Shown: piece after piece, positions 32,391-64,000 of the stretch
How the letters are laid out: every line of letters begins with the position of its first letter
Position numbering within the stretch: the stretch's first letter is position 1
DNA from: a virus
Direction: 5' to 3' (one strand)
DNA: 64,000 nucleotides
Virus record (IMG/VR): IMGVR_UViG_3300031834_001450
Span: 19,335-83,334 of that record
Translations under genes and position numbers: made by a program
The notes under the pieces: model-generated
What the model was told of the DNA's origin: nothing
What the model saw: the letters and a program-made list of their open reading frames with translations, nothing else
The model's database searches: none

Positions 32391-32831
32391 TTAAATTTTT
32401 TCTACTTCAATCCCTCTATTTTTTAAAAAATCTATTCCAGAAGAATCTCTATATTCTTCTCTATAAAAAACTTTTTTAATACCAGCAGATAGAATTTGTA
32501 AACTACAATTAAAACATGGAGATAATGTTATATAGATTGTTGATCCATTAGGAGAAATACCCTGTTTTACTGCTTTATGTATGGCATTAAGTTCTGAATG
32601 CATTACTTCTTTTCTAGTAACTAATTCTCCCAGTTCATTAATATATTCACATTCATTGTCCATTCCCATGGGCATACCATTATATCCATATGCTATAATA
32701 TTATGATCTTTAACAATAACGCATCCAACCTTATTACGAGTTGCATAAGACATCTGAGATGTATTAACTGCAATAGACATATATAATTGATCATATTGTT
32801 TTATTCGTTCCTTATTCATTATAACTCTCAA
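32391..32831 (-). CDS. dCMP deaminase
   Basis: KVGCVIV, GYNG, HSELNAI and SPCFNC. Confidence 0.92.
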   Translation of the reverse strand: MRVIMNKERIKQYDQLYMSIAVNTSQMSYATRNKVGCVIVKDHNIIAYGYNGMPMGMDNECEYINELGELVTRKEVMHSELNAIHKAVKQGISPNGSTIYITLSPCFNCSLQILSAGIKKVFYREEYRDSSGIDFLKNRGIEVEKI

Positions 32832-33531
32832 CTATTTTTTGTAATAAATCAAAATGTCTATCATATATATGAAAAGATCCAAAAAAGAAATTAATAATTC
32901 CCATTTGTAAAGTTGGATATATTTCTTTTAATTCTAAATATAATTTATTATAAACATAACAATGCCAATAAAAATCATTAAAAAAGCCATAAATTCCATC
33001 GCAACTTCTTTGATCTACAAAATATATCAATGAATTATTTCTAATAAAACATTGAACACTATTGGTACATACAAAATCTGACATTCCATTTCTATTATAA
33101 TCTATATGCATAGATGGTCTTGTATATAACATTAATGCTCTTCTTGATAGAGGATTAAATATTAATTCTTGTTTACAATTATTAAATTGATTATAATTCT
33201 CTTCAGAAAAAATTAAATAACCATAATTAGAATTTATTTCTTTTTTTTCATCTTTAGTACAAACATCGTTCCATATTTTAATATCATCAACATAATCAAT
33301 AATAGATAATGATTCTGAAAGATACCAATTTAATTCTTTTTCTACATATTGAATAGAAGTTTTTTTAATTTCATTAAAATTTAAAATTGATTGTACTGGA
33401 TTTAATCCTTCTATTTTACATCCAATAATTTCAACAACTTTAATACCAGTTTTATCTATTACAAACTTTTTATTTTGTATATCACTATATAATTTTTTAA
33501 AACTCGGTAACAATATTTGTTCATTAGTCAT
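32812..33531 (-). CDS. dCMP hydroxymethylase (T4 gp42-like)
   Basis: Closely tracks T4 gp42 as I recall it: DKTG.K..EIIG, EL.WY, EINSNYG, SRR..M.YTRPSM..DYN..GMSDF.CTN.VQ, RS.D...GF.ND, GS.H.Y.RHF. Catalytic Cys and the dCMP-specifying Asp are retained. Confidence 0.9.
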   Translation of the reverse strand: MTNEQILLPSFKKLYSDIQNKKFVIDKTGIKVVEIIGCKIEGLNPVQSILNFNEIKKTSIQYVEKELNWYLSESLSIIDYVDDIKIWNDVCTKDEKKEINSNYGYLIFSEENYNQFNNCKQELIFNPLSRRALMLYTRPSMHIDYNRNGMSDFVCTNSVQCFIRNNSLIYFVDQRSCDGIYGFFNDFYWHCYVYNKLYLELKEIYPTLQMGIINFFFGSFHIYDRHFDLLQKIVESYNE

Positions 33532-34736
33532 TTTAATAATCCTTCAATATCTTTAATTACATTATTTGAAATTTCTTCAAAAGCTCCTTGATTATTTCTA
33601 ATTTTAATTTCTTTAAATTCATTTGTATTAATATAATCTAAAGAATCTAGTGCATAATTTAATTTTTGTACTATGCTATCAACTATAGGTGAATCACCAT
33701 CATGATCGATATAATAAGGATACTTTTTACCACCTCTTCTAGCATATTCAAAAACCATAGGCATTATAGTAATATTATTACAATAAAGAGACTCCACTTG
33801 ACTACACCCCCCCATTCTCTCAAGAATAAATCCATGAAAGCTAATATCTGCTTTCCATAATAATTCAAAGTATTCTTGTCTATTAAGAGATCCTTCTTTA
33901 TAAATATAGAGAGGTTTAACTAATTCTTTTAATTCATCTATGGAATATTTTCCAGATGGATTTGTAAATATAACTTGAAAATCTTTTCTTTTTTCATAAA
34001 GTTTATTTACTGCTTCAATAAATTCTATGTGATGAGTATAGTTTATACCACTTAATCTATTGAGAAATAATATAGTTTTCTTTTCAAATTTTTCTTCTAA
34101 TTTATAAGTATCAGCCTCTTTTTTAGAAAATCCAAAATCCCAAATAAAACTTTTCTTTTTAATTTGATTTATTTTATTTGATTTAAAAACTAATTTAGCA
34201 TTATTAAAAAAAGCTTCTTTTGTTGATTTACAAGTAAAAATACAAAGATCAGAACATTCATATCCATCAAATTGTCTATATTGATAACTTATTTCAGTAG
34301 CCACTTTTGCTTCATTAATTTCAGGAGTATCCATCCAATAACAACAAGAAATTAACTTTGTTTCTTTTGATTTTTGAAATAAATATGTTTTTATATTTCT
34401 AGAAAGTTCTATAATATTATTCCATACAATATCAATCTTTGGAAGTTCTTTAAAAATAGAATCAAATTCAATAATATTAAAATGTTGTCGTATTGTAAAT
34501 GCATCAATAGGATAAGTATAGGGAATAAAAATAACATTTTTGTGTTTAAAGATATTATCATAAGATTTTATGTCAGCAAAATCTTTAAGTGGTGCAATAA
34601 GAATATAAACTGTCCAATTTATCTTTTCAACAATTTCAGTTAAAATCCCAACTAGCATATTAATGTTACTATCAGCGCTAATCCATTTATTTTCATTATT
34701 ATAAATACTTTGTTGCAAAATATATAAAATATTCAT
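33528..34736 (-). CDS. GT-B glycosyltransferase, candidate DNA hmC glycosyltransferase
   Basis: ILFLNRLS, LNRQEYFELLWKADI and ERMGGCSQVES (GT4-like E..E motif); translationally coupled to the hydroxymethylase. Confidence 0.75.
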   Translation of the reverse strand: MNILYILQQSIYNNENKWISADSNINMLVGILTEIVEKINWTVYILIAPLKDFADIKSYDNIFKHKNVIFIPYTYPIDAFTIRQHFNIIEFDSIFKELPKIDIVWNNIIELSRNIKTYLFQKSKETKLISCCYWMDTPEINEAKVATEISYQYRQFDGYECSDLCIFTCKSTKEAFFNNAKLVFKSNKINQIKKKSFIWDFGFSKKEADTYKLEEKFEKKTILFLNRLSGINYTHHIEFIEAVNKLYEKRKDFQVIFTNPSGKYSIDELKELVKPLYIYKEGSLNRQEYFELLWKADISFHGFILERMGGCSQVESLYCNNITIMPMVFEYARRGGKKYPYYIDHDGDSPIVDSIVQKLNYALDSLDYINTNEFKEIKIRNNQGAFEEISNNVIKDIEGLLK

Positions 34737-35419
34737 TTATTATCTCCTATTATATTTTTTAAATGCGCTTCACTTCTATTTCTTAATTTAATTTTATGTT
34801 TTCTAAGTATTTTGCTAATAGGCCCACCATAGACATTATATCTTTTTCCTATTGTATAAGGTGATTCTTTTAAATTTAAATATGAAAAAATTATTTCTTT
34901 TTCTTGCTCATCTGTAAAAAATTTACCACTAGCTTCTTGTAAATTTCTTTTATGCACATTATTTTCTTTTAATATTCTTTCAATAACCGCACCACTAACA
35001 TTAAATATTTTTCCTATATTTTTTAAAGATATTTTGTCATTATACATATTTAAAATAGATATAGTTTGTGATTGAGAAAATTGAATTTTACTTCTTCCAG
35101 GACAATCTGTATTATCTGGATCCTGTTTATTATACCCAAATTCACTATTTTTTGTTTTATAAAAGTCTATATAATATTTTTCCTTTTGTCTAAGAGTATC
35201 TTCATTATATTCTGATAGTAATTCGATAATATAAAAATTAAAATTTTCTTTGCCGTATTTTAATAATGAAAATCTTAAATGTTTATTTATGGCCTCATTT
35301 TTTAAAAATAATTGCATATGATCTTTTAACCTTGACTGAACATATTTAGAACTTCCAATATATTTTTTGTTATTTATTTTATTTTCAATACAATATATTC
35401 CAGGTTGTACAAATAGCAT
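34733..35419 (-). CDS. GIY-YIG endonuclease with C-terminal HTH repeats
   Basis: GIYCIENKINNKKYIGSS, R...H, E..YI and GYN. Confidence 0.9.
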   Translation of the reverse strand: MLFVQPGIYCIENKINNKKYIGSSKYVQSRLKDHMQLFLKNEAINKHLRFSLLKYGKENFNFYIIELLSEYNEDTLRQKEKYYIDFYKTKNSEFGYNKQDPDNTDCPGRSKIQFSQSQTISILNMYNDKISLKNIGKIFNVSGAVIERILKENNVHKRNLQEASGKFFTDEQEKEIIFSYLNLKESPYTIGKRYNVYGGPISKILRKHKIKLRNRSEAHLKNIIGDNK

Positions 35420-35920
35420 TTATTCTCCTATGAATTCTTTTATTTTTAATATTTGATTTTCTAAATTTTCATCTGTAGTATCTAATATAAGATATTCACA
35501 TTTTGTTTTTTTAAGAAATTCAATATAATATTGTTTTATTAATTTTATTTTATTTTGATTAATAACATCATCAATATATATTTTATATTCTTTTTTAAAA
35601 CAATAAATAAGTTTTAATTTCAACTTAGAAAACTCTTCATCTATTTGCCATATAAAATTTTCATTAAATTGTCTATCTAATGCTAAGGAATATGAAAAAT
35701 GACAAGCAATTCCACGATCCATAATTAAATTAGTTGGAACTTGTTTTAAATAATCTATAAAAAATCTACTTTCATATTCTACTGAAAGATCAATTTCATT
35801 ATTTTTAAAATATTCTTTTGTATTATTATTTCTATAATATGAAATATTTAATAACTTAGATATTATTTGAGCAATTGTTGTTTTTGCTGTTCTATCAGGA
35901 CCAATAAATTGAATCAACAT
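35420..35920 (-). CDS. dNMP kinase (thymidylate-kinase fold)
   Basis: GPDRTAKTT P-loop and MDRG motif. Confidence 0.8.
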   Translation of the reverse strand: MLIQFIGPDRTAKTTIAQIISKLLNISYYRNNNTKEYFKNNEIDLSVEYESRFFIDYLKQVPTNLIMDRGIACHFSYSLALDRQFNENFIWQIDEEFSKLKLKLIYCFKKEYKIYIDDVINQNKIKLIKQYYIEFLKKTKCEYLILDTTDENLENQILKIKEFIGE

Positions 35921-35931
35921 TAAATTTTTCC

Positions 35932-36621
35932 TTATATTTTTTCTAAAAAATAAATCACATCTCTACTTAATTTATAATTATTCCAAGCAAATAAAACTCG
36001 TTGAATTTCAATTGGTAAAATAGTAAACTCTTCTATTGCACAATTATTTAAATAATTATCATTTGACATACTCCATCCATGTACATCTAATATTTTGAGT
36101 CCACTTTGATTAAAACAATCTTCAAGTTCTTTATAAGTATATTCATAATTATGATATTTTGGCCAATTTACAATATTTGATATTTGATTTGGTGTACTTA
36201 TAATTAAATATTTAAAAGGTAAATTACAAATTTTATTAAAAATTTCTATTCCTTTTTCTTTTGAATTAAAATGTTCAATTACATCTAATAATAATAAACA
36301 ATCAATTTTATTTTTTAAAATAATTTCTTGAATAGTTAAAAATACATTTTCTGTTTTATAAAAAATTCCATTACTACAAAGATTATCATATATAATTGAA
36401 TCTCTATAATCAATACCAAAATAAGAAATAATTTTATTTGATTCAATTAATAATTTATTAATATATGCTGTATCACAACCCACATCAATAATTGATTCAA
36501 TATTATTTTTAATAATAAATTCTCTAACAGATTGATCTTTAAATAATTTACTTATATATCCAGGATCAAGATCTATTTTAGATAATTGTTGTCTTAATGA
36601 TGACATATCAACAATAGTCAT
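35932..36621 (-). CDS. Class I SAM-dependent methyltransferase
   Basis: IIDVGC, GID, LDVIEH, IISTPN and H..EY..EL. Confidence 0.85.
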   Translation of the reverse strand: MTIVDMSSLRQQLSKIDLDPGYISKLFKDQSVREFIIKNNIESIIDVGCDTAYINKLLIESNKIISYFGIDYRDSIIYDNLCSNGIFYKTENVFLTIQEIILKNKIDCLLLLDVIEHFNSKEKGIEIFNKICNLPFKYLIISTPNQISNIVNWPKYHNYEYTYKELEDCFNQSGLKILDVHGWSMSNDNYLNNCAIEEFTILPIEIQRVLFAWNNYKLSRDVIYFLEKI

Positions 36622-37658
36622 ATTTTTTCTAAATTTACCATTTCAATTACCCATGGTATAATTTCATCTAATGCTTTATTTAATGAAGTTTCTGCTTTAA
36701 ATCCTAATAACTTTTCTGCTTTATCAATAGAAGGAATTCGGCATTGTACATCATATTCATACGGGTTATCTGAAATATAATTAAACTCTACATTAGAATT
36801 TAATCTATCCCAAATAATTTTTGCAAGTTCTAATACAGTATAACTTTCAGGGGTACTTAAATTAAAATCAGTATTTAATGCATTTTCATTAAAAATGGCT
36901 TGATAAATCCCTTCTGCTAAATCTCCTGCATATGTATAATGGCGTATTTGATTTCCTTTTCCAAGAATATGAAGCGGGTTTTGACCTTTAATTATTTTTT
37001 GTATAAGATCAGGTATTACATGGCTAAGAGCTAATTTAATATTACCAGACATAACTACTGTTTCTGTCATAGCTGCTTGTTCCCCAATTCCAGCTGCATT
37101 AAATGGTCTTACAATAGTATATGGAAGTTTATATTGTTCATATGCACCTTTAACAAAATATTCAATTGCAAGTTTTTGAAATCCATATGTTGATAATGGA
37201 GGTGGGCAAATCAATTGATCTCCTTCTTTTGAAGGAAAAGTTTCTGTTGATTCAAAAACCATACTTGAAGATATTGCAATTATTTTTTTAAGAAATCCTT
37301 CTTTATGCGCTTTAATTGCAATATCAAAAATAGATGCGGTAAGTCTTTCATTTTCAGCAAGTAAATCATAAGCCAATTCATGAAAGAAACTTATACCACC
37401 AATCCACGCAGCTCCATGCACAATATAATCTATTTTATTAGAAAAAATTATATTTTCTAAAATATCTTTATTTTTTGCATCACCATAAAAATGAAAATAA
37501 TTTGGATGTTTATCAAAACTTTTTTCTAATGGACCATATTTCCAATCATTATCTACTCCATAAACAATATGACCTTCATTTAATAATTTTTGTATTGAAT
37601 ATCCTGCAATAAAACCTCGATCACCAGTCCAAAATATTTTAGCCATTAATTTCTCCAA
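36618..37658 (-). CDS. NAD-dependent nucleotide-sugar epimerase/dehydratase/decarboxylase (extended SDR)
   Basis: TGDRGFIA, SSSMV, YGFQK (YxxxK), VRPFN and G.G.Q.R.YTY. Confidence 0.92.
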   Translation of the reverse strand: MEKLMAKIFWTGDRGFIAGYSIQKLLNEGHIVYGVDNDWKYGPLEKSFDKHPNYFHFYGDAKNKDILENIIFSNKIDYIVHGAAWIGGISFFHELAYDLLAENERLTASIFDIAIKAHKEGFLKKIIAISSSMVFESTETFPSKEGDQLICPPPLSTYGFQKLAIEYFVKGAYEQYKLPYTIVRPFNAAGIGEQAAMTETVVMSGNIKLALSHVIPDLIQKIIKGQNPLHILGKGNQIRHYTYAGDLAEGIYQAIFNENALNTDFNLSTPESYTVLELAKIIWDRLNSNVEFNYISDNPYEYDVQCRIPSIDKAEKLLGFKAETSLNKALDEIIPWVIEMVNLEKI

Positions 37659-38878
37659 TTATTATATAAATTTTCTTTTAATATATTCCATCCATCAATT
37701 ACTATTTTATCATTAAATTCTTCTTTAGTAAAAGTAAGATATTCTTTATGATTTATTGCTATAATAATAATATCACATTGTTTAACTTCTTCTATTGAAT
37801 AATTTATAAAAATCATATTATTATATTTATCATTATATTCTCCTAACGGAAGATTAGGTTCATTTATTTTAATTTGTTCTGGTAAATTACGTTCTAAATA
37901 TCTAATTAATTTAGGTGTTAAATTATCTCTAGTATCATCAGTATTACTTTTAAATGTAAATCCAAAAATTCCAATAGTTTTATTTTTAATATCATTTTGA
38001 ATTAAATCAACATAAAATTTTGGTGTAAATTCATTAATTTTGTAAGCTTGTAATATTAAATCTGTTTGTGGAAAATTTTCATTAATCATTCCCCAATCTT
38101 TCGTTAAACATGTGCCTTTTGCAAAACCAGGAGTCAATAATCCTTTATTTCTATCATATCCAGGATTCATTAAAGAAAATAATTTATATATATCAACTCC
38201 AAATGATTGTGACATATATGAAAAATAATTAGGAATTGCCATATTTATGTAACGATAAATATTTGTAAATAATTTACTTAATTCAGCTTCAATAAAAGTT
38301 GATTTAAAGATTTGAATTCCTAAAATAGAAAAAATATTTTTTGCAAGATCAAAACTAATATCATCTTTTACTCCAATAACTTGAGGTAATTCTAATAATT
38401 CTTTATATGCTTCGCCTTCAACTATTCTTTCAGGACACATTGCTAAATAAAAATCTTTACCAAGAATATAGTTTGTTTTATTTTCAATAATATTTTTGAT
38501 ATACTCAGTTGTATTAGGTGCAACTGTTGATCTAAGAATAATTAATTTATTTTTAATATCTATTTTAGAAATTAAATCATTAATTACGAATGTTACTTGA
38601 GATAAATCTGTTTCAATATGTTCTCCTAGTGGAGTTCCAACAGTTAGTATATATGCTTTTGCATCAGGGTAATTTTCATATTTTGAATTATAAATTGTAA
38701 AAGTTTCTTTAACTAATTCATCATATCCTGGTTCATAAAATGGCATTTTATTATTTTTAATACCCTCTATCATTTCATCATTAATATCTACACCACAAAC
38801 ATTTAACTTTTTTTCTCGTAAAGATAATGCCAATGGAAGACCAACTCTTCCACATCCTATTACACAAATATCATACAT
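37646..38878 (-). CDS. UDP-sugar 6-dehydrogenase (WecC/WbpA-type)
   Basis: VIGCGRVGLP, VGTP, RSTVAP.TT, CPER, AEL.KL..N, G.CL.KD and FK.NTDD.R. Confidence 0.92.
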   Translation of the reverse strand: MYDICVIGCGRVGLPLALSLREKKLNVCGVDINDEMIEGIKNNKMPFYEPGYDELVKETFTIYNSKYENYPDAKAYILTVGTPLGEHIETDLSQVTFVINDLISKIDIKNKLIILRSTVAPNTTEYIKNIIENKTNYILGKDFYLAMCPERIVEGEAYKELLELPQVIGVKDDISFDLAKNIFSILGIQIFKSTFIEAELSKLFTNIYRYINMAIPNYFSYMSQSFGVDIYKLFSLMNPGYDRNKGLLTPGFAKGTCLTKDWGMINENFPQTDLILQAYKINEFTPKFYVDLIQNDIKNKTIGIFGFTFKSNTDDTRDNLTPKLIRYLERNLPEQIKINEPNLPLGEYNDKYNNMIFINYSIEEVKQCDIIIIAINHKEYLTFTKEEFNDKIVIDGWNILKENLYNNWRN

Positions 38879-38900
38879 ATATTAACTCCATTTTTATTTT

Positions 38901-39395
38901 CTATTTTATTCCCGTACTTCCAAAACCACCACTTCCTCTTGAAGATTCTTTATCTATATAAAGTTCTGAAAATTCTACTTCATATGGTAAAAGATAAGAA
39001 ATAGGAATTAGTATAAATTGAATTATTTTTTCATTTTGTTCTATAACCACTATTTCATTAGAAGAATTAATAAGAGAAATATGTATTTCACCTAAATAAT
39101 CTTCATCTATAGTTTCTGCTGCTTTTATTAAACCTCTTCTTGAACTTATTCCAGATTTATTAAATGCGTTTAACATAAATCCATCTGGTATATTTGCATG
39201 AATACCTGATGGAATTAAACATCTTTCATTTGGATTTAGGATAATTGCTGTATTATTTATTTGAATATTTGAATTTTTTAATTTAAAATCTAATAAAAAT
39301 TGTGAATCAAATACAGGAATAAAAAAATCTATTCCAGCAGATTTTGGAGTTGATCTAATTGGACTTTTTACCTCTCTAATTTTCGAAAATTTCAT
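38901..39395 (-). CDS. dut: Trimeric dUTPase (variant motifs)
   Basis: SAGIDF, NKSG, IDEDY.GEI, Q and RGSGGFGSTG. Confidence 0.9.
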   Translation of the reverse strand: MKFSKIREVKSPIRSTPKSAGIDFFIPVFDSQFLLDFKLKNSNIQINNTAIILNPNERCLIPSGIHANIPDGFMLNAFNKSGISSRRGLIKAAETIDEDYLGEIHISLINSSNEIVVIEQNEKIIQFILIPISYLLPYEVEFSELYIDKESSRGSGGFGSTGIK

Positions 39396-59557: not shown

Positions 59558-59953
59558 TCATACAATAACTCCTTCAACTTTTTGTATATATTCTTTTAAT
59601 TTTTCTCTTTCTTGTTCTAAATTATCTATTTCTTCTTCTAGATTCTTTACTGTAATGTTTAATTCTTCAATAAAATAATTTGAATCTTCTACTGTTTCTT
59701 TATAGTTTTTTATTTCTTTTTCTGAATCTTCTACTGTTTCTTTATAGTTTTTTATTTCTTTTTCTTGATCCTTTACTGTAATTTTTAATTCTTCAATAAG
59801 ATATTCTAAATCTTCAATTATAACATCTAACTTTTCTTCTTCATCACCATAGGAATCTATTAATTCCATATAACATTCTATAGTTCCATATAAATCTTTT
59901 TTACCTGATTTAATTTCATTAACTACTTCTTCAATAACTGTATTTAATATCAT
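59558..59953 (-). CDS. Acidic coiled-coil protein with an internal 42-bp duplication
   Basis: EKEIKNYKETVEDS twice (59681-59722 and 59723-59764). Confidence 0.65.
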   Translation of the reverse strand: MILNTVIEEVVNEIKSGKKDLYGTIECYMELIDSYGDEEEKLDVIIEDLEYLIEELKITVKDQEKEIKNYKETVEDSEKEIKNYKETVEDSNYFIEELNITVKNLEEEIDNLEQEREKLKEYIQKVEGVIV

Positions 59954-60234
59954 AAATTTACCTTTGTAAAATATTTATCATTTATTTCGCAATAATATAC
60001 ATGATGATCTTTATCTTTAGTTAAATACATTGGAACTAAAACCCCATCACCCTGTCTAGAAGTCATAATAATTTTATCAATTACTATTCTACCATTACAA
60101 GATTCTAGTATATCCCCTTCTTTAAATTTTGGTTTATATTTTGTAGAGCACTTTAATACACTATTTACACCACCGTATTTTTTTTCTAATTGTTCATATT
60201 CTTCCGTACTTATTTTAATAGTTTCTATTTCCAT
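59950..60234 (-). CDS. Hypothetical protein
   Basis: ORF with PKFKEGD motif. Confidence 0.6.
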   Translation of the reverse strand: MEIETIKISTEEYEQLEKKYGGVNSVLKCSTKYKPKFKEGDILESCNGRIVIDKIIMTSRQGDGVLVPMYLTKDKDHHVYYCEINDKYFTKVNL

Positions 60235-60281
60235 TTCTCTTTCTCCTCTTTAGCTTTTATTTTGAATTTAAAGTTTTTCAT

Positions 60282-61823
60282 AAAATTTTGTGCTGTGGAA
60301 AATGCAATCTCTTTAGAGTTGCATAGGAACAGCACATACCTCCATTATATAATTTTTTCTTGCACTAATTCTCTCTAAATATTTCTTTGCATTCCAACTT
60401 TTATTAAAAATATTTCCTAAAATATCCATTATAACAAATGCTCCTGAACTTCTTTTCCCCTTAATAAAACCAATACCTTCGGGGGTTTTTACTTTGTCAA
60501 ATTTCTTAAATCCAAATAATTTTCCAGTTGGTATTTTCTTTTCACTTCTAATACCCTTCGTTTGTTGATAGTCACCTTTAGCTACATTTTTCTTAATGAA
60601 ATAATAATTCAAATCTTTAATTATTTCACTATCACTACAACAAATAGCAATAGCATCATTACAATGTGATTTAGATAATTGCAATATTTGTTCTCTCTTG
60701 AATTTAGTTTCATACCCAAAAGTTTCAACAAAATCACCAAATTTCTTTTTAAGTTGTGATTTGGTAATCCCAATTTCAGTAGCATGTTTAGTTATAGATT
60801 TTTTACCTTTTATTTCAAATTCACCTTTGTGTAATTTGTCATGACAACCTTCACATAAAGTAATTAAATTTTCTGGAGAATCTGTTCCCCCATTACTTCT
60901 AAAAATAATATGATGAACATGCAGTTTACTTTTTTTAGTTTTACAATGTTGACATGTAAATCCATCTCTATCGAGAATAAACGCCTTTACATTATAAAAT
61001 CCTTTCTGTTGCCCTTTCTGATAATCTTTAACTTCAGAATTACTTATTTTATGAATATCAAAACTTGCTAATTCTAAAATCCATTTAGAGACAGGGAGTA
61101 ACTTTTCAATAAATTTCTTTTCTCTTAAATGAGAATTTAATTTGCTTAAAAGTGAAGGAGCAAGTCTATCTTTTCTAAGGGAATTTGCTCGGTTATTCCA
61201 TCTTGCTTCTCTGTATCTTGTTTTTCTTCCTCTTCTGTTTCTTCTGTACATTTTTCTTTGTTCCATCTTTTTTGAAACATCTTGACGAATAAACGTTTCT
61301 GATTTGTACAAAACTTTACCATTTGAAATACAAGCTGTTCCAATAACCTTGCTTCCTGTGTCCATTCCTGCAATCACTTCTTGTTTATAGTTTGTTGTCT
61401 CTATTAACATTTTAATAGTGAATGGCGTTTTTTTAATTGCTTTAGCTTTACCTTCTTTTAACAATATTCTTGCTATTGATGGTTTTGTGGGCATTAAAGG
61501 TTTCCCTTCTTTGTTTAAAACATAAACTAACATCTTAGTTAAATCCTCCTTTCGGGTAATGTGTATCAAAAGCATTGAGGTTACTTTTGAATCCAACGTC
61601 CTCTCGAAGAGATGATGAAGAGTTTAACGACATAAGCACTATTCCTAACACATCAGAATTGTTTAACTTATATCCTAAGAGGTCAGAACTGAGGCGACAT
61701 CCTAACGTTACTATTTTCTTCTCATCGTTTATCAAACTTTCTCCCCCATTTGATCTTCTGGTAAACAAGCATCTTTAATTTTAAATTTTAAAGATACAAC
61801 TCTTTAGAGTTGTGTTTATTTAC
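60282..61823 (+). mobile_element. Non-autonomous IS200/IS605-family IscB element
   Basis: Target TCAT (60278-60281), left-end GAAA + hairpin GCAATCTCTTTAGAGTTGC, right-end AAAG + hairpin ACAACTCTTTAGAGTTGT ending in TTAC at 61823; no tnpA inside. Confidence 0.85.
60313..61533 (-). CDS. iscB: IscB RNA-guided endonuclease (406 aa; start re-called at MLVYV)
   Basis: PLMP, RuvC-I GMDTG, Arg-rich bridge helix RRNRR, RuvC-II ELASFD, HNH HVHHI..R..GG....NLITLC..CH and RuvC-III H.ND; AGGAGG RBS. Confidence 0.95.
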   Translation of the reverse strand: MLVYVLNKEGKPLMPTKPSIARILLKEGKAKAIKKTPFTIKMLIETTNYKQEVIAGMDTGSKVIGTACISNGKVLYKSETFIRQDVSKKMEQRKMYRRNRRGRKTRYREARWNNRANSLRKDRLAPSLLSKLNSHLREKKFIEKLLPVSKWILELASFDIHKISNSEVKDYQKGQQKGFYNVKAFILDRDGFTCQHCKTKKSKLHVHHIIFRSNGGTDSPENLITLCEGCHDKLHKGEFEIKGKKSITKHATEIGITKSQLKKKFGDFVETFGYETKFKREQILQLSKSHCNDAIAICCSDSEIIKDLNYYFIKKNVAKGDYQQTKGIRSEKKIPTGKLFGFKKFDKVKTPEGIGFIKGKRSSGAFVIMDILGNIFNKSWNAKKYLERISARKNYIMEVCAVPMQL

Positions 61824-61843
61824 TATTTATTCTATATCCTTAG
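61540..61843 (-). ncRNA. IscB omegaRNA, scaffold about 61823-61540 with 5' guide from 61843-61824
   Basis: GC-richer structured non-coding region between the IS end and iscB, starting GTAAATAAACACAACTCTAAAGAGTTGT. Confidence 0.8.
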
Positions 61844-62040
61844 AGTTAGCTACTAAGATAACAAGAATTATAATAGCTAAAATCATAACAATAATCAAAT
61901 CTTTCATCTTTTCTCCTTATTTTTAAATAATAATTTCCATTTTTATACTTTATCAAATTTACAAAACCCCATTTCTTATGGATAAAATTATTGATTTACT
62001 TTTTATCCAATGGACATAAAAGTACAATCTCTTTATAGAA

Positions 62041-62607
62041 TTATATTATTTGAGTTAACATATCTCTATAAAAATCATCATAAGTATAATTAGTAGACCA
62101 TATACCATTAGACCACATTATTTTTTCCCACCATCTCTTACTTCCTTCATATCCAATAAATTCTCCACTGATGAGGTCAAGTCCATTGTCAATTCTGCTA
62201 TGAAAGAAGCGTCCCATAAGGATAACATTCGATCTATTATATATTTGTTTTGGCGCCTGTGCCCGGCTCACAATATGTGCACCATCCGTAAATTTTTGAG
62301 ATAACCAAAATCCTTCTTGTTGCTCTACTATTTTTAATTCTTGAACAGTTAATATCTTCATAACTAAACATGAATAATCGCGTATTATTAAATCTCTTTT
62401 TAATGCTTCCCACTCCCAATCTTTTTCTATGTGTTCTTTTTCATATTCTTTAGTTTTCTTATCTACATATTTTTTATAACATTGAATTTGTTTTGAATCT
62501 TTTTCACATTGTTTAGATTTAAATGTTTGACGTAAACATCTACCTTCCCTACACTTTTCAATAAAATCAACTTCACTTAATATTTTAAGCTTATATAGTT
62601 CTGTCAT
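62041..62607 (-). CDS. HNH/NinG-like nuclease candidate
   Basis: RDYSC ... DGAHIVSR ... N..L...FH..ID. Confidence 0.5.
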   Translation of the reverse strand: MTELYKLKILSEVDFIEKCREGRCLRQTFKSKQCEKDSKQIQCYKKYVDKKTKEYEKEHIEKDWEWEALKRDLIIRDYSCLVMKILTVQELKIVEQQEGFWLSQKFTDGAHIVSRAQAPKQIYNRSNVILMGRFFHSRIDNGLDLISGEFIGYEGSKRWWEKIMWSNGIWSTNYTYDDFYRDMLTQII

Positions 62608-62791
62608 TCTTTCTCTTACAATAATTTTTGCAAAATTTTAACACTTGAAAATCTGATAGATTATCTTTCCATTTTTTTACAACCACATACTTTTTCATAT
62701 CTTTCCCCTAGCCACAATTATCTATCTCTTACATCATCATATCTGTTATGAAATTCAGATATAACTTTTAAATATTTATCTACTTCTTCTC

Positions 62792-62915
62792 TTAAATTTT
62801 GATTTTCGATTGTGAACTTAACACAACTCTAAAGAGTTGTATCTTCCTGCTCTGAGTGTCTAATAACTTGCTCATATCTAACAGGCGTTAATTTCCTCTG
62901 TTCCGGAGGTATTTA
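62792..62915 (-). ncRNA. TnpB reRNA (3' part) with guide AATCGAAAATCAAAATTTAA
   Basis: AACGCCTGT...GCAGGAAG + hairpin + GTTCAC right end at 62812, typical of tnpB 3' ends. Confidence 0.7.
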
Positions 62916-64000
62916 ATTTTAAAAGTGGGTAATCCACTTTAGTTAAACCAAAATTCTTAATATTTATAGCAGCATTAATATCTCTATCATGAGTTTCACC
63001 ACAATCACAAGTCCATTGTCTATCTGATAATGTCAAATTATTATTTAACATTCCGCAAGAATGACATAATTTAGTTGATGGGTCAAAACGACCAATAGAG
63101 ATTATGGTTTTACCATACCAATTAGCTTTGTAATTTAATTGTCTAACAAACTCAGACCAGCTAACATCACTTATTGCTTTAGCTAATTTGTGATTTTTAA
63201 CCATATTAGATACTGCTAAATCCTCAATACAGATAGTTTGGTTTTCACTAATTATTTTTGAAGAAAGTTTGTGCAAGAAGTCCTTACGCTGATTAGTAAT
63301 TTTTTGATGAGTTCTTGCTACTTTAATTCTACTTTTATTTTTATTATTACTTCCTTTTGTTTTATGACTATATTTTCTTTGAGCTTTCTTTAACTTCTTT
63401 TCTGATTTCTTCAAGTGTTTAGGATTAGAAATCTTTTCTCCATTACTTGTTACTAAAAAATCCTTAATTCCCAAGTCAATACCAATAGTAGTTTTCTCGT
63501 TTACTGTCTTTGGTTCAATTATATTATCTGTTGTCTCAACAAGAATAATAGCAAAATATTGGCCAGAAGGATTTTTAGAAATAGTTAATGTTTTTTCTTT
63601 TCCTTCGTATAATCTGTGTTGAATTATTTTAATTCCTTCTTTTAATTTAGGAATATATAATATTCCTTCTTCTATTTTATAATGTTGAGGAATTTGAAAA
63701 CTTTTATGATTATCGTGTTTCTTTTTAAATTTAGGAAAACCCTTTTTATTACGGAAAAAATTCTTAAAAGCTATATCTAAATTTCTCATTTCCATTTGAA
63801 GAGATTGAGAATTTATTTCATTTAACCAAGGATATTCTTTTTTGAGTTCTGGTATTTTGTTGTTTAATTCAATCCATGATATACTTTTCTTGGTATTAGT
63901 ATAATGTTTAGTTTTAGCGTCAAGACCCCAATTATATAAGAAACGTGTAGAACCAAAGTGTTTAGCTAAAAACACTTTCTGTTCTTTGTTGGGTTAAATG
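62812..64000 (-). mobile_element. IS605/IS1341-type TnpB element (left end outside window)
   Basis: tnpB plus right-end hairpin and TCAC terminus. Confidence 0.85.
62878..63975 (-). CDS. tnpB: TnpB RNA-guided endonuclease; in-frame TAA just upstream at 63994-63996
   Basis: FG..RF.YN, FPKFK, GIDLG, IEDL, PSTK.C..CG, C.CG and DRDINAA.NI. Confidence 0.92.
   Translation of the reverse strand: MFLAKHFGSTRFLYNWGLDAKTKHYTNTKKSISWIELNNKIPELKKEYPWLNEINSQSLQMEMRNLDIAFKNFFRNKKGFPKFKKKHDNHKSFQIPQHYKIEEGILYIPKLKEGIKIIQHRLYEGKEKTLTISKNPSGQYFAIILVETTDNIIEPKTVNEKTTIGIDLGIKDFLVTSNGEKISNPKHLKKSEKKLKKAQRKYSHKTKGSNNKNKSRIKVARTHQKITNQRKDFLHKLSSKIISENQTICIEDLAVSNMVKNHKLAKAISDVSWSEFVRQLNYKANWYGKTIISIGRFDPSTKLCHSCGMLNNNLTLSDRQWTCDCGETHDRDINAAINIKNFGLTKVDYPLLKLNTSGTEEINAC

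Follow-up and report, generated by a model that had tools for sequence, protein, structure and literature searches.

IscB and TnpB transposons with a common right-end hairpin in a large sediment phage probably form one transposase-compatibility group

The DNA analyzed here (the window) is a stretch of 64,000 nucleotides at the end of a phage contig of 83,334 bp in IMG/VR, the final base of the contig being base 64000 of the window. We consider it very probable that the window carries two non-autonomous OMEGA transposons of the IS200/IS605 type, one encoding IscB and one encoding TnpB, that are arranged right end (RE) facing RE and belong to a single transposase-compatibility group. Both elements are inserted in a variable region adjoining recA of a large sediment phage, both iscB and tnpB are encoded on the minus strand, and 988 bp of phage DNA, containing a 188-aa open reading frame (ORF), separates the two REs. 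The CheckV completeness of the contig is ~54%, and this stretch occurs in sequencing runs of sediment metagenomes, which stem from several studies.

The REs of the two elements have a 26-nt core in common. A preliminary description of this DNA, made from the letters alone, stated that positions 61791–61816 are the exact reverse complement of 62820–62845, and we saw the same both by direct reading and in a repeat search. The match lengthens to 31 nt at 94% identity. A 16-nt core with up to two mismatches occurs at three sites in the window (60306–60321, 61797–61812, and 62824–62839), compared with 0.02 sites expected from shuffled sequences. With the RE assignment of Meers et al. (2023; bioRxiv 10.1101/2023.03.14.532601), who likewise place the right end upstream of iscB, the top strand on which the transposase TnpA is active is the plus strand for the IscB element and the minus strand for the TnpB element. 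The guide RNA is on the strand opposite to the active strand in the IscB element and on the same strand in the TnpB element. Both element types have imperfect, subterminal hairpins on the same strand at both ends and no terminal inverted repeats. It had been proposed that the two nucleases ride on the same transposon ends. This holds for the hairpin core, but the transposon-adjacent motif (TAM; TTCAT for IscB versus TTTAT for TnpB), the cleavage motif of the RE (TEM; TTTAC versus TTCAC), the spacers, and the left ends (LEs) are specific to each nuclease. The 26-nt identity begins at the second base of the guide and stops short of the spacer and cleavage motif, so the bases that determine specificity fall just outside of the core.

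Crystallographic work on IS608 (PMC3201880) established that guide bases 1, 2, and 4 pair with cleavage bases –3, –4, and –1, respectively, leaving –2 without a partner. For each end we took as the guide the four bases located two positions 5' of the hairpin, predicted the cleavage tetranucleotide from it, and looked for this motif 6–18 nt upstream at left ends and 2–8 nt downstream at right ends. All three ends in the window comply, and the tetranucleotides quoted in the preliminary description stand where it placed them (AAAG/TTAC at the IscB RE, GAAG/TCAC at the TnpB RE, and GAAA with TCAT at the IscB LE). Across the family the rule was obeyed by 77/79 distinct ends, compared with a mean of 29.8 and a maximum of 44 when the guide labels were shuffled in 2000 trials; this is not a count of independent events because many of the ends share descent, and it is the six pair types that are independent. 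These are AAAA/TTAT, AAAG/TTAC, AAAT/TTAA, CAAG/TGAC, GAAA/TCAT, and GAAG/TCAC (guide/cleavage). Changes between pair types are Watson–Crick compensations at the two informative positions, and the two REs in the window are one compensated pair apart. The ends that broke the rule were at loci L004 and L021 (both AAAG with TTCAC) and L078 (GAAA with TTCAC). L004 resembles a solo remnant, with no long ORF alongside it even when TGA is read as sense.

Further copies of the shared sequence, which the preliminary description suggested seeking, are plentiful. We scanned viral contigs with an exact 18-nt hairpin query and metagenome contigs with a 22-nt query. The viral scan yielded 21 stretches, 16 of which have recognizable element ends, all on further phage contigs, and the metagenome scan added 61, from samples of sediment, sludge, and fermenters. 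Five of the matches from the viral scan (L003, L006, L008, L012, and L016) were left out since they do not have the flanking end motifs of the family and look like chance matches. Altogether the 18–22 nt hairpin occurs at ~80 distinct element ends. These flank at least six IscB lineages with 41–100% identity (41, 45, 48, 60 [L020], about 80, and 100%) and several TnpB lineages with about 30–99% identity, those on viral contigs including one at 41%, one at 33%, and a 99% twin of the TnpB in the window. The hairpin is also at both ends of a 320-bp mini-element without genes (L018). In seven aligned TnpB REs, an invariant AGGAAGAT is followed by the hairpin and TTCAC, with the exception of one stem pair that has changed in a compensatory way from A-T to C-G; the remaining variation before TTCAC consists of small changes in the spacer, and the sequences are unrelated immediately past TTCAC. 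Because the same hairpin is found at ends across viral and metagenome contigs, the 26-nt identity in the window is, as judged from these alignments, a conserved family core and not a local event. Likewise, the sharing of ends is old, since it spans nucleases that are only 30–60% identical, and the earlier idea that the window is a snapshot of nuclease exchange does not fit this family-wide pattern.

Two other features of the family were observed in these scans. At many distinct sites there are chimeras of ~50 nt with a single hairpin, in which the 5' half of an LE (TAM, spacer, and LE guide) is joined through one hairpin to the 3' half of an RE (spacer and TTCAC or TTTAC); the guide fits the upstream TAM but not the downstream motif (L005, L010, L015, L055, L066, L069, L072, L073, L077, L079, L094, L103, and L107). 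These resemble scars of deletions in which an LE hairpin recombined with the identical RE hairpin. A scar of this kind would split the TAM from the guide target and therefore resist being cut again. Secondly, the 60% IscB relative (L020:281-1541, minus strand, in phage record G012) has four in-frame TGA codons, two of which align with Trp in the IscB of the window, and reading TGA as sense increases the longest open frame at this locus from 223 to 1255 codons. The G012 phage probably reads TGA as an amino acid and, if so, this element family spans phages with different genetic codes.

The preliminary description proposed that a single TnpA acts on both elements in trans and that a Y1 tnpA should be sought. 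The search found none on this contig, but related phages do carry one, next to an RE with an identical 26-nt core. L025 and L024 have an autonomous layout consisting of an LE hairpin, tnpA (132 aa, Y1_Tnp 131–135 bits), tnpB (414–439 aa), and an RE, and in both the 26-nt core of this RE is identical to that in the window. L024 lies in a complete 155.6-kb phage (G015) with terminal repeats that is syntenic with the window, the amino acid identity being 84% for RecA and 60% for the 188-aa ORF. Metagenomes contain six further copies with tnpA at 75–92% identity. The family TnpA matches the structures of TnpA from IS608, ISDra2, and archaea with E about 1e-19 (IS608 at E 2.5e-18), and the TnpA of the autonomous relatives is a cognate-looking candidate for the elements in the window. 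In a search for hosts, the hairpin 20-mer had no exact match among 185,579 species genomes, and the only TnpA matches in this collection were from archaeal metagenome-assembled genomes at 29–32% identity. Genes for IscB, TnpB, and IS200-type TnpA do occur in cultured phages, where the relatives are distant (IscB at most 43% and TnpA at most 40% identity).

Several variations were observed among the ends and derivatives of the autonomous elements. In L025 a perfect outer palindrome of 15 bp, which takes in even the TTTAC target motif, encloses the LE hairpin (L025:1181-1245; DNA fold –22.6 kcal/mol, z = –9.3), and the outer stem of the L024 LE is merely 6 bp. L057, L067, and L071 encode TnpB that is 87–89% identical to TnpB of the autonomous elements, with no tnpA detected upstream by tblastn, and appear from this to be tnpA-less derivatives. 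The left end of L057 has TTTAT/AAAA in place of TTTAC/AAAG.

Could IscB elements and TnpB elements use the same type of hairpin and yet depend on separate, specialized TnpA proteins? We think this unlikely. It would account for the lack of tnpA beside any IscB copy, for the distinct TAM, TEM, and spacers of IscB elements (16 nt from the TAM to the LE guide versus 11 nt), and for TnpA sequences that range from 75% to 100% identity. Nonetheless, the end hairpins of IscB and TnpB elements are base-for-base identical over 22–26 nt, cleavage specificity lies in the DNA rather than in the protein, and GstTnpA handled IscB and TnpB elements alike.

The same hairpin is also part of the guide RNAs. The preliminary description had one hairpin serving as scaffold in both RNAs; it does lie within both scaffolds, but the two RNAs carry complementary strands of it, such that the RNA hairpin has a UAAA loop and an A-C mismatch in the IscB guide RNA and a UUUA loop and a G-U pair in the TnpB guide RNA. 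These opposite strands are one reason that we give very little credence to the idea that the hairpin is kept for an RNA function alone, as a guide-RNA scaffold or terminator, in which case it would not be a transposase site and the transposase need not be shared. The hairpin is the first inner stem-loop of the HEARO model, closes the predicted TnpB scaffold at its 3' end, and scores as terminator-like on the plus strand, all of which would suit such a function. However, it also forms left ends, which are outside of both guide RNAs, as well as both ends of the gene-less L018, and the 5' tetranucleotide covaries with the cleavage motif, which is a property at the level of DNA that is peculiar to TnpA. 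The two roles can coexist.

Comparison with copies at other sites supports the boundaries of the elements. A contig in run X8 has an IscB element that is ~99.7% identical to the one in the window (2 substitutions and 1 gap over 1.1 kb) with another left flank, which likewise has TTTTCAT as its last bases. In runs X4 and X8 there are contigs that follow the window to 61823/61824 and then diverge. The TnpB twin at L013 departs from the window directly past TTCAC, and this junction, 62811/62812, is repeated in a contig from run X4. These near-identical copies at other sites show recent movement. Family-wide, there are 10 distinct flanks past TTTAC (IscB type) and 28 past TTCAC. Insertion is thus 3' of a conserved short target with the cleavage motifs bounding the element and without target duplication; none is visible at the IscB junctions in the window. 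The boundaries given in the preliminary description (60282/61823 and 62812) therefore stand in so far as copies elsewhere support 61823 and 62812 and fit 60282; the part of the test that called for an empty-site allele yielded none. That the 26-nt identity is a local matter, arising from gene conversion between neighbors or as an inverted-repeat pair bounding an invertible or mobile 1-kb cassette (61791–62845) with the 188-aa ORF, is suggested by the copies being inverted, 993 nt apart, and on either side of one ORF of unknown function, but this is highly improbable given that the same 26 nt are at many unlinked ends elsewhere, including IscB and TnpB elements at other sites, that G015 has the 188-aa ORF in the same synteny without either repeat, and that a separate cleavage motif and element boundary come after each copy.

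A number of points weigh against two mobile elements that share one transposase. Besides the missing tnpA, both on the contig of the window and beside any IscB copy examined, the searches of 10 related phage records, viral contigs, and four sediment runs turned up no exact empty-site allele. Specifically, the inter-element segment and left flank matched only a diverged syntenic region of G015 among the 10 phage records, exact searches with both RE flanks found no match in viral contigs, and the four sediment runs contained no contig that joins 60281 to 61824 or that spans an empty TnpB site. G015 has neither element at the corresponding place, but its flanks are too diverged to provide an exact empty site. 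Two joins seen in sediment-run contigs (59724 to 61221 and 61923 to 63619) were unsupported and were disregarded. Many family ends are kin by descent, which makes 77/79 an overstatement of the number of independent events. The tnpB in the window is cut by the end of the contig and has an in-frame TAA at 63994–63996 (minus strand), 5 nt from this end, where the twin has a Tyr codon (…RIYPNKEQ…); the TAA and one silent change are both within the last 20 nt. This TAA may be a real nonsense mutation in a defective tnpB or an artefact introduced as the assembly broke off in a repeated element. Expression of both guide RNAs is a prediction from the sequence. Finally, the phage may have modified pyrimidines and, if so, TnpA, IscB, and TnpB must work on modified DNA as substrate.

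Together, these data support a model in which the ends of both elements would fold as single-stranded DNA into one hairpin that serves as the binding site of a Y1 (HUH) TnpA. The position of the cut would be set by the four bases 5' of the hairpin and not by the protein; since the cut site is encoded by a DNA guide, one TnpA can serve elements with different target motifs. This TnpA would be supplied in trans by autonomous tnpA-tnpB elements of related phages, would excise the top strand, and the site would reseal. IscB (guide 61839–61824, TAM ATGAA) or TnpB (guide 62811–62796, TAM TTTAT) could then cut the resealed empty site, and recombination after this cut would copy the element back. During co-infection by recombination-proficient phages, the same cut could convert relatives that are free of the element. 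Mobilization in trans, as well as the nuclease activity and homing of IscB and TnpB, are what we infer from these ends and coding sequences.

It is possible, though we hold this only tentatively and think it rather doubtful in full, that there is a phage-restricted IS605 network in which a phage-encoded TnpA carries elements with IscB, with one of several TnpB, or without genes from one large phage to another during co-infection, the phages possibly having modified pyrimidines, with RNA-guided nucleases used as programmable homing endonucleases in phage–phage competition and the LE/RE chimeras being scars that are immune to re-cutting and have shed the element. The network seems to reside in phages and to have a tnpA of its own. 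Large environmental phages that host such networks with their own transposase bear upon how RNA-guided nucleases spread between viruses. The ends also illustrate a modular OMEGA logic, where a near-invariant hairpin of 22–26 nt persists in IscB and TnpB lineages whose identity has dropped to 30–60%, and one or two compensating bases beside the hairpin re-code the choice of target. As a resource, the family offers six guide/cleavage pairs, two compact nucleases for which the TAM can be predicted (IscB, 407 aa, and TnpB, 382 aa), and a TnpA that is a candidate for the cognate transposase. The finding leaves the known mechanism unchanged.

The features of the two elements are listed in Table 1. 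The RRXRR and HNH domains found in the 407-aa ORF bear out its identification as iscB. Among structures in the PDB, this protein matches HfmIscB and OgeuIscB with E 1e-39 to 1e-35, with the RuvC and HNH motifs aligned; it thus has a split RuvC (RRXRR) with an inserted HNH and, upstream, a HEARO-type guide RNA bounded by the RE. The HEARO match is full length (model positions 1–211) with position 1 on 61823, and its score compares with a gathering score of 83. In L020 the HEARO match also begins at the RE boundary. The scaffold probably extends to about 61537. The cleavage tetranucleotide of this RE, TTAC, is at 61820–61823, and the sequence at the guide position in the RE flank differs at every other insertion site. 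At the left end, the order on the plus strand is TTCAT, the boundary, 16 nt, GAAA, AT, and a hairpin with one bulged T in an outer stem, and the three independent IscB insertions with TTCAT next to the LE are those in the window, in L020, and in the run X8 contig, which matches from 60275. The LE overlaps the gene: the stop codon of iscB (60313–60315) is within the loop of the LE hairpin, and the hairpin with its outer stem (60313–60336) encodes the last six codons and the stop (…AVPMQL-stop). IscB of L020 ends similarly (…VPIQL-stop).

For the TnpB element, both an OrfB_IS605 RuvC domain and a zinc-ribbon TNB domain are found in the ORF at 62878–63975, as expected of tnpB, and the catalytic motifs align with those in the solved structure of ISDra2 TnpB. 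The guide RNA over the 3' end of the gene and the RE is predicted only. Its putative scaffold overlaps the 3' end of tnpB and terminates in the RE hairpin, a consensus fold of the seven TnpB REs has 9 pairs with compensatory changes, and no Rfam family matches this RNA. The cleavage tetranucleotide TCAC of the RE is at 62815–62812 (minus strand). The L013 twin is 99% identical, is at a different site, and has an intact 382-aa ORF and an LE. Its LE and RE hairpins are on one strand, and the LE reads TTTAT, then 11 nt, then AAAA. The TAM of TTTAT expected for the TnpB in the window is taken from this LE, and comparison with the twin suggests that the tnpB start codon and LE lie past base 64000.

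Table 1. Positions of the IscB and TnpB elements and their parts in the window.
Feature	Position	Strand	Basis or detail
TTCAT target/TAM, outside the IscB element	60277..60281	+	Abuts the LE at 3 independent insertions
Complete non-autonomous IscB element	60282..61823	+	Copies at other sites, HEARO start, family rule
IscB left end	60282..60337	+	DNA fold –12.5 kcal/mol, z = –4.5; layout conserved in L020
IscB LE guide GAAA	60298-60301	+	Target TCAT 60278-60281
IscB LE hairpin, bulged T, inside outer stem	60304-60322	+	
iscB, 407 aa, ATG at 61536	60313..61536	-	Pfam RRXRR 190 bits, HNH 44 bits
IscB guide-RNA (omegaRNA) scaffold	61593..61823	-	Rfam HEARO RF02033, 83.4 bits, E 2e-16
IscB right end	61790..61823	+	Guide AAAG 61790-61793, hairpin 61796-61813, cleavage motif TTTAC 61819-61823
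26-nt core, copy 1	61791..61816	+	Sequence reading, repeat search
Predicted 16-nt IscB guide (RE flank read on minus)	61824..61839	-	Published IscB architecture; predicted TAM ATGAA
Predicted 16-nt TnpB guide (RE flank)	62796..62811	-	Inferred from TnpB architecture
TnpB right end	62812..62846	-	Guide GAAG 62846-62843, hairpin 62840-62823, cleavage motif TTCAC 62816-62812
Putative TnpB omegaRNA scaffold	62812..62990	-	RNA fold –37.1 kcal/mol, z = –2.5
26-nt core, copy 2, top strand of the TnpB element	62820..62845	-	Sequence reading, repeat search
tnpB, interrupted by the contig end	62878..64000	-	Pfam OrfB_IS605 110 bits, TNB 76 bits

Elsewhere in this phage, one gene row at 32391–39395 of the window (minus strand) contains genes for a dCMP deaminase, a thymidylate-synthase-family protein, a GIY-YIG nuclease, and a methyltransferase, and further for an NAD epimerase/dehydratase, a UDP-sugar dehydrogenase, and a dUTPase. 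Its predicted products are compatible with a pathway for pyrimidine hypermodification. Beside the IscB insertion is a 131-aa coiled-coil-like ORF with tandem repeats of 42 and 126 nt (59580–59831), and a Logan contig from run X7 omits exactly 42 nt at 59677–59720. A second, different TnpB (411-aa open frame) is encoded outside of the window on the same phage contig (G000:C1:3080-3280) and on the contig of the TnpB twin (G007:C1:33582-33782); no hairpin copy with three or fewer mismatches was reported near it in either of these.

The elements resemble several known systems. IS608 from Helicobacter pylori (TnpA structures 2A6M and 2VJV; PMC3201880) likewise has subterminal hairpins on one strand, inserts 3' of a tetranucleotide, and reads its cleavage sites with 4-nt guides located 5' of the hairpins, the pairing geometry being the same and the AAAG/TTAC pair identical. 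It differs in being autonomous (tnpA and tnpB) and bacterial, and in its hairpin sequence, its spacings of 19 and 10 nt, and its RE pair, GAAT/TCAA. As with HEARO RNA and the IscB omegaRNA (RF02033; OgeuIscB structures 7UTN and 7XHT), there is a full-length match that starts at the transposon boundary and is followed by iscB; by contrast, the score in the window is at the gathering threshold (83.4 versus 83), and this IscB is short (407 aa) and about equally close to HfmIscB and OgeuIscB. ISDra2 TnpB (8EXA and 8H1J) aligns over residues 5–345 (E 3.5e-72), and its reRNA/omegaRNA leads us to expect a guide RNA over the gene 3' end and RE, the structure of which is predicted in the window. Here the TnpB element is non-autonomous and its TAM is TTTAT rather than TTGAT.

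The closest parallel is with ISGst1-5 of Geobacillus stearothermophilus, for which the principle of shared ends, TAM and TEM that covary with guides, and one TnpA acting in trans is already published. In that group, elements encoding IscB or TnpB and gene-less palindrome-associated transposable elements (PATEs) also have highly similar LEs and REs, TAM and TEM covary with the DNA guides, and the RE bounds the IscB guide RNA. Even the motifs are the same, with TTCAT as the TAM of IscB (GstIscB), TTTAT as that of TnpB (GstTnpB2), and TTCAC as TEM, the likeness resting on motifs and layout. GstTnpA alone excises ISGst elements that encode either IscB or TnpB (Meers et al., 2023; bioRxiv 10.1101/2023.03.14.532601); where that action in trans is experimental, here it is the shared ends that point to it. 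Unlike ISGst1-5, the family described here resides in phages whose genomes come from metagenomes of sediment, sludge, and fermenters, has a phage-borne tnpA, and uses a larger number of guide/cleavage pair types (six).

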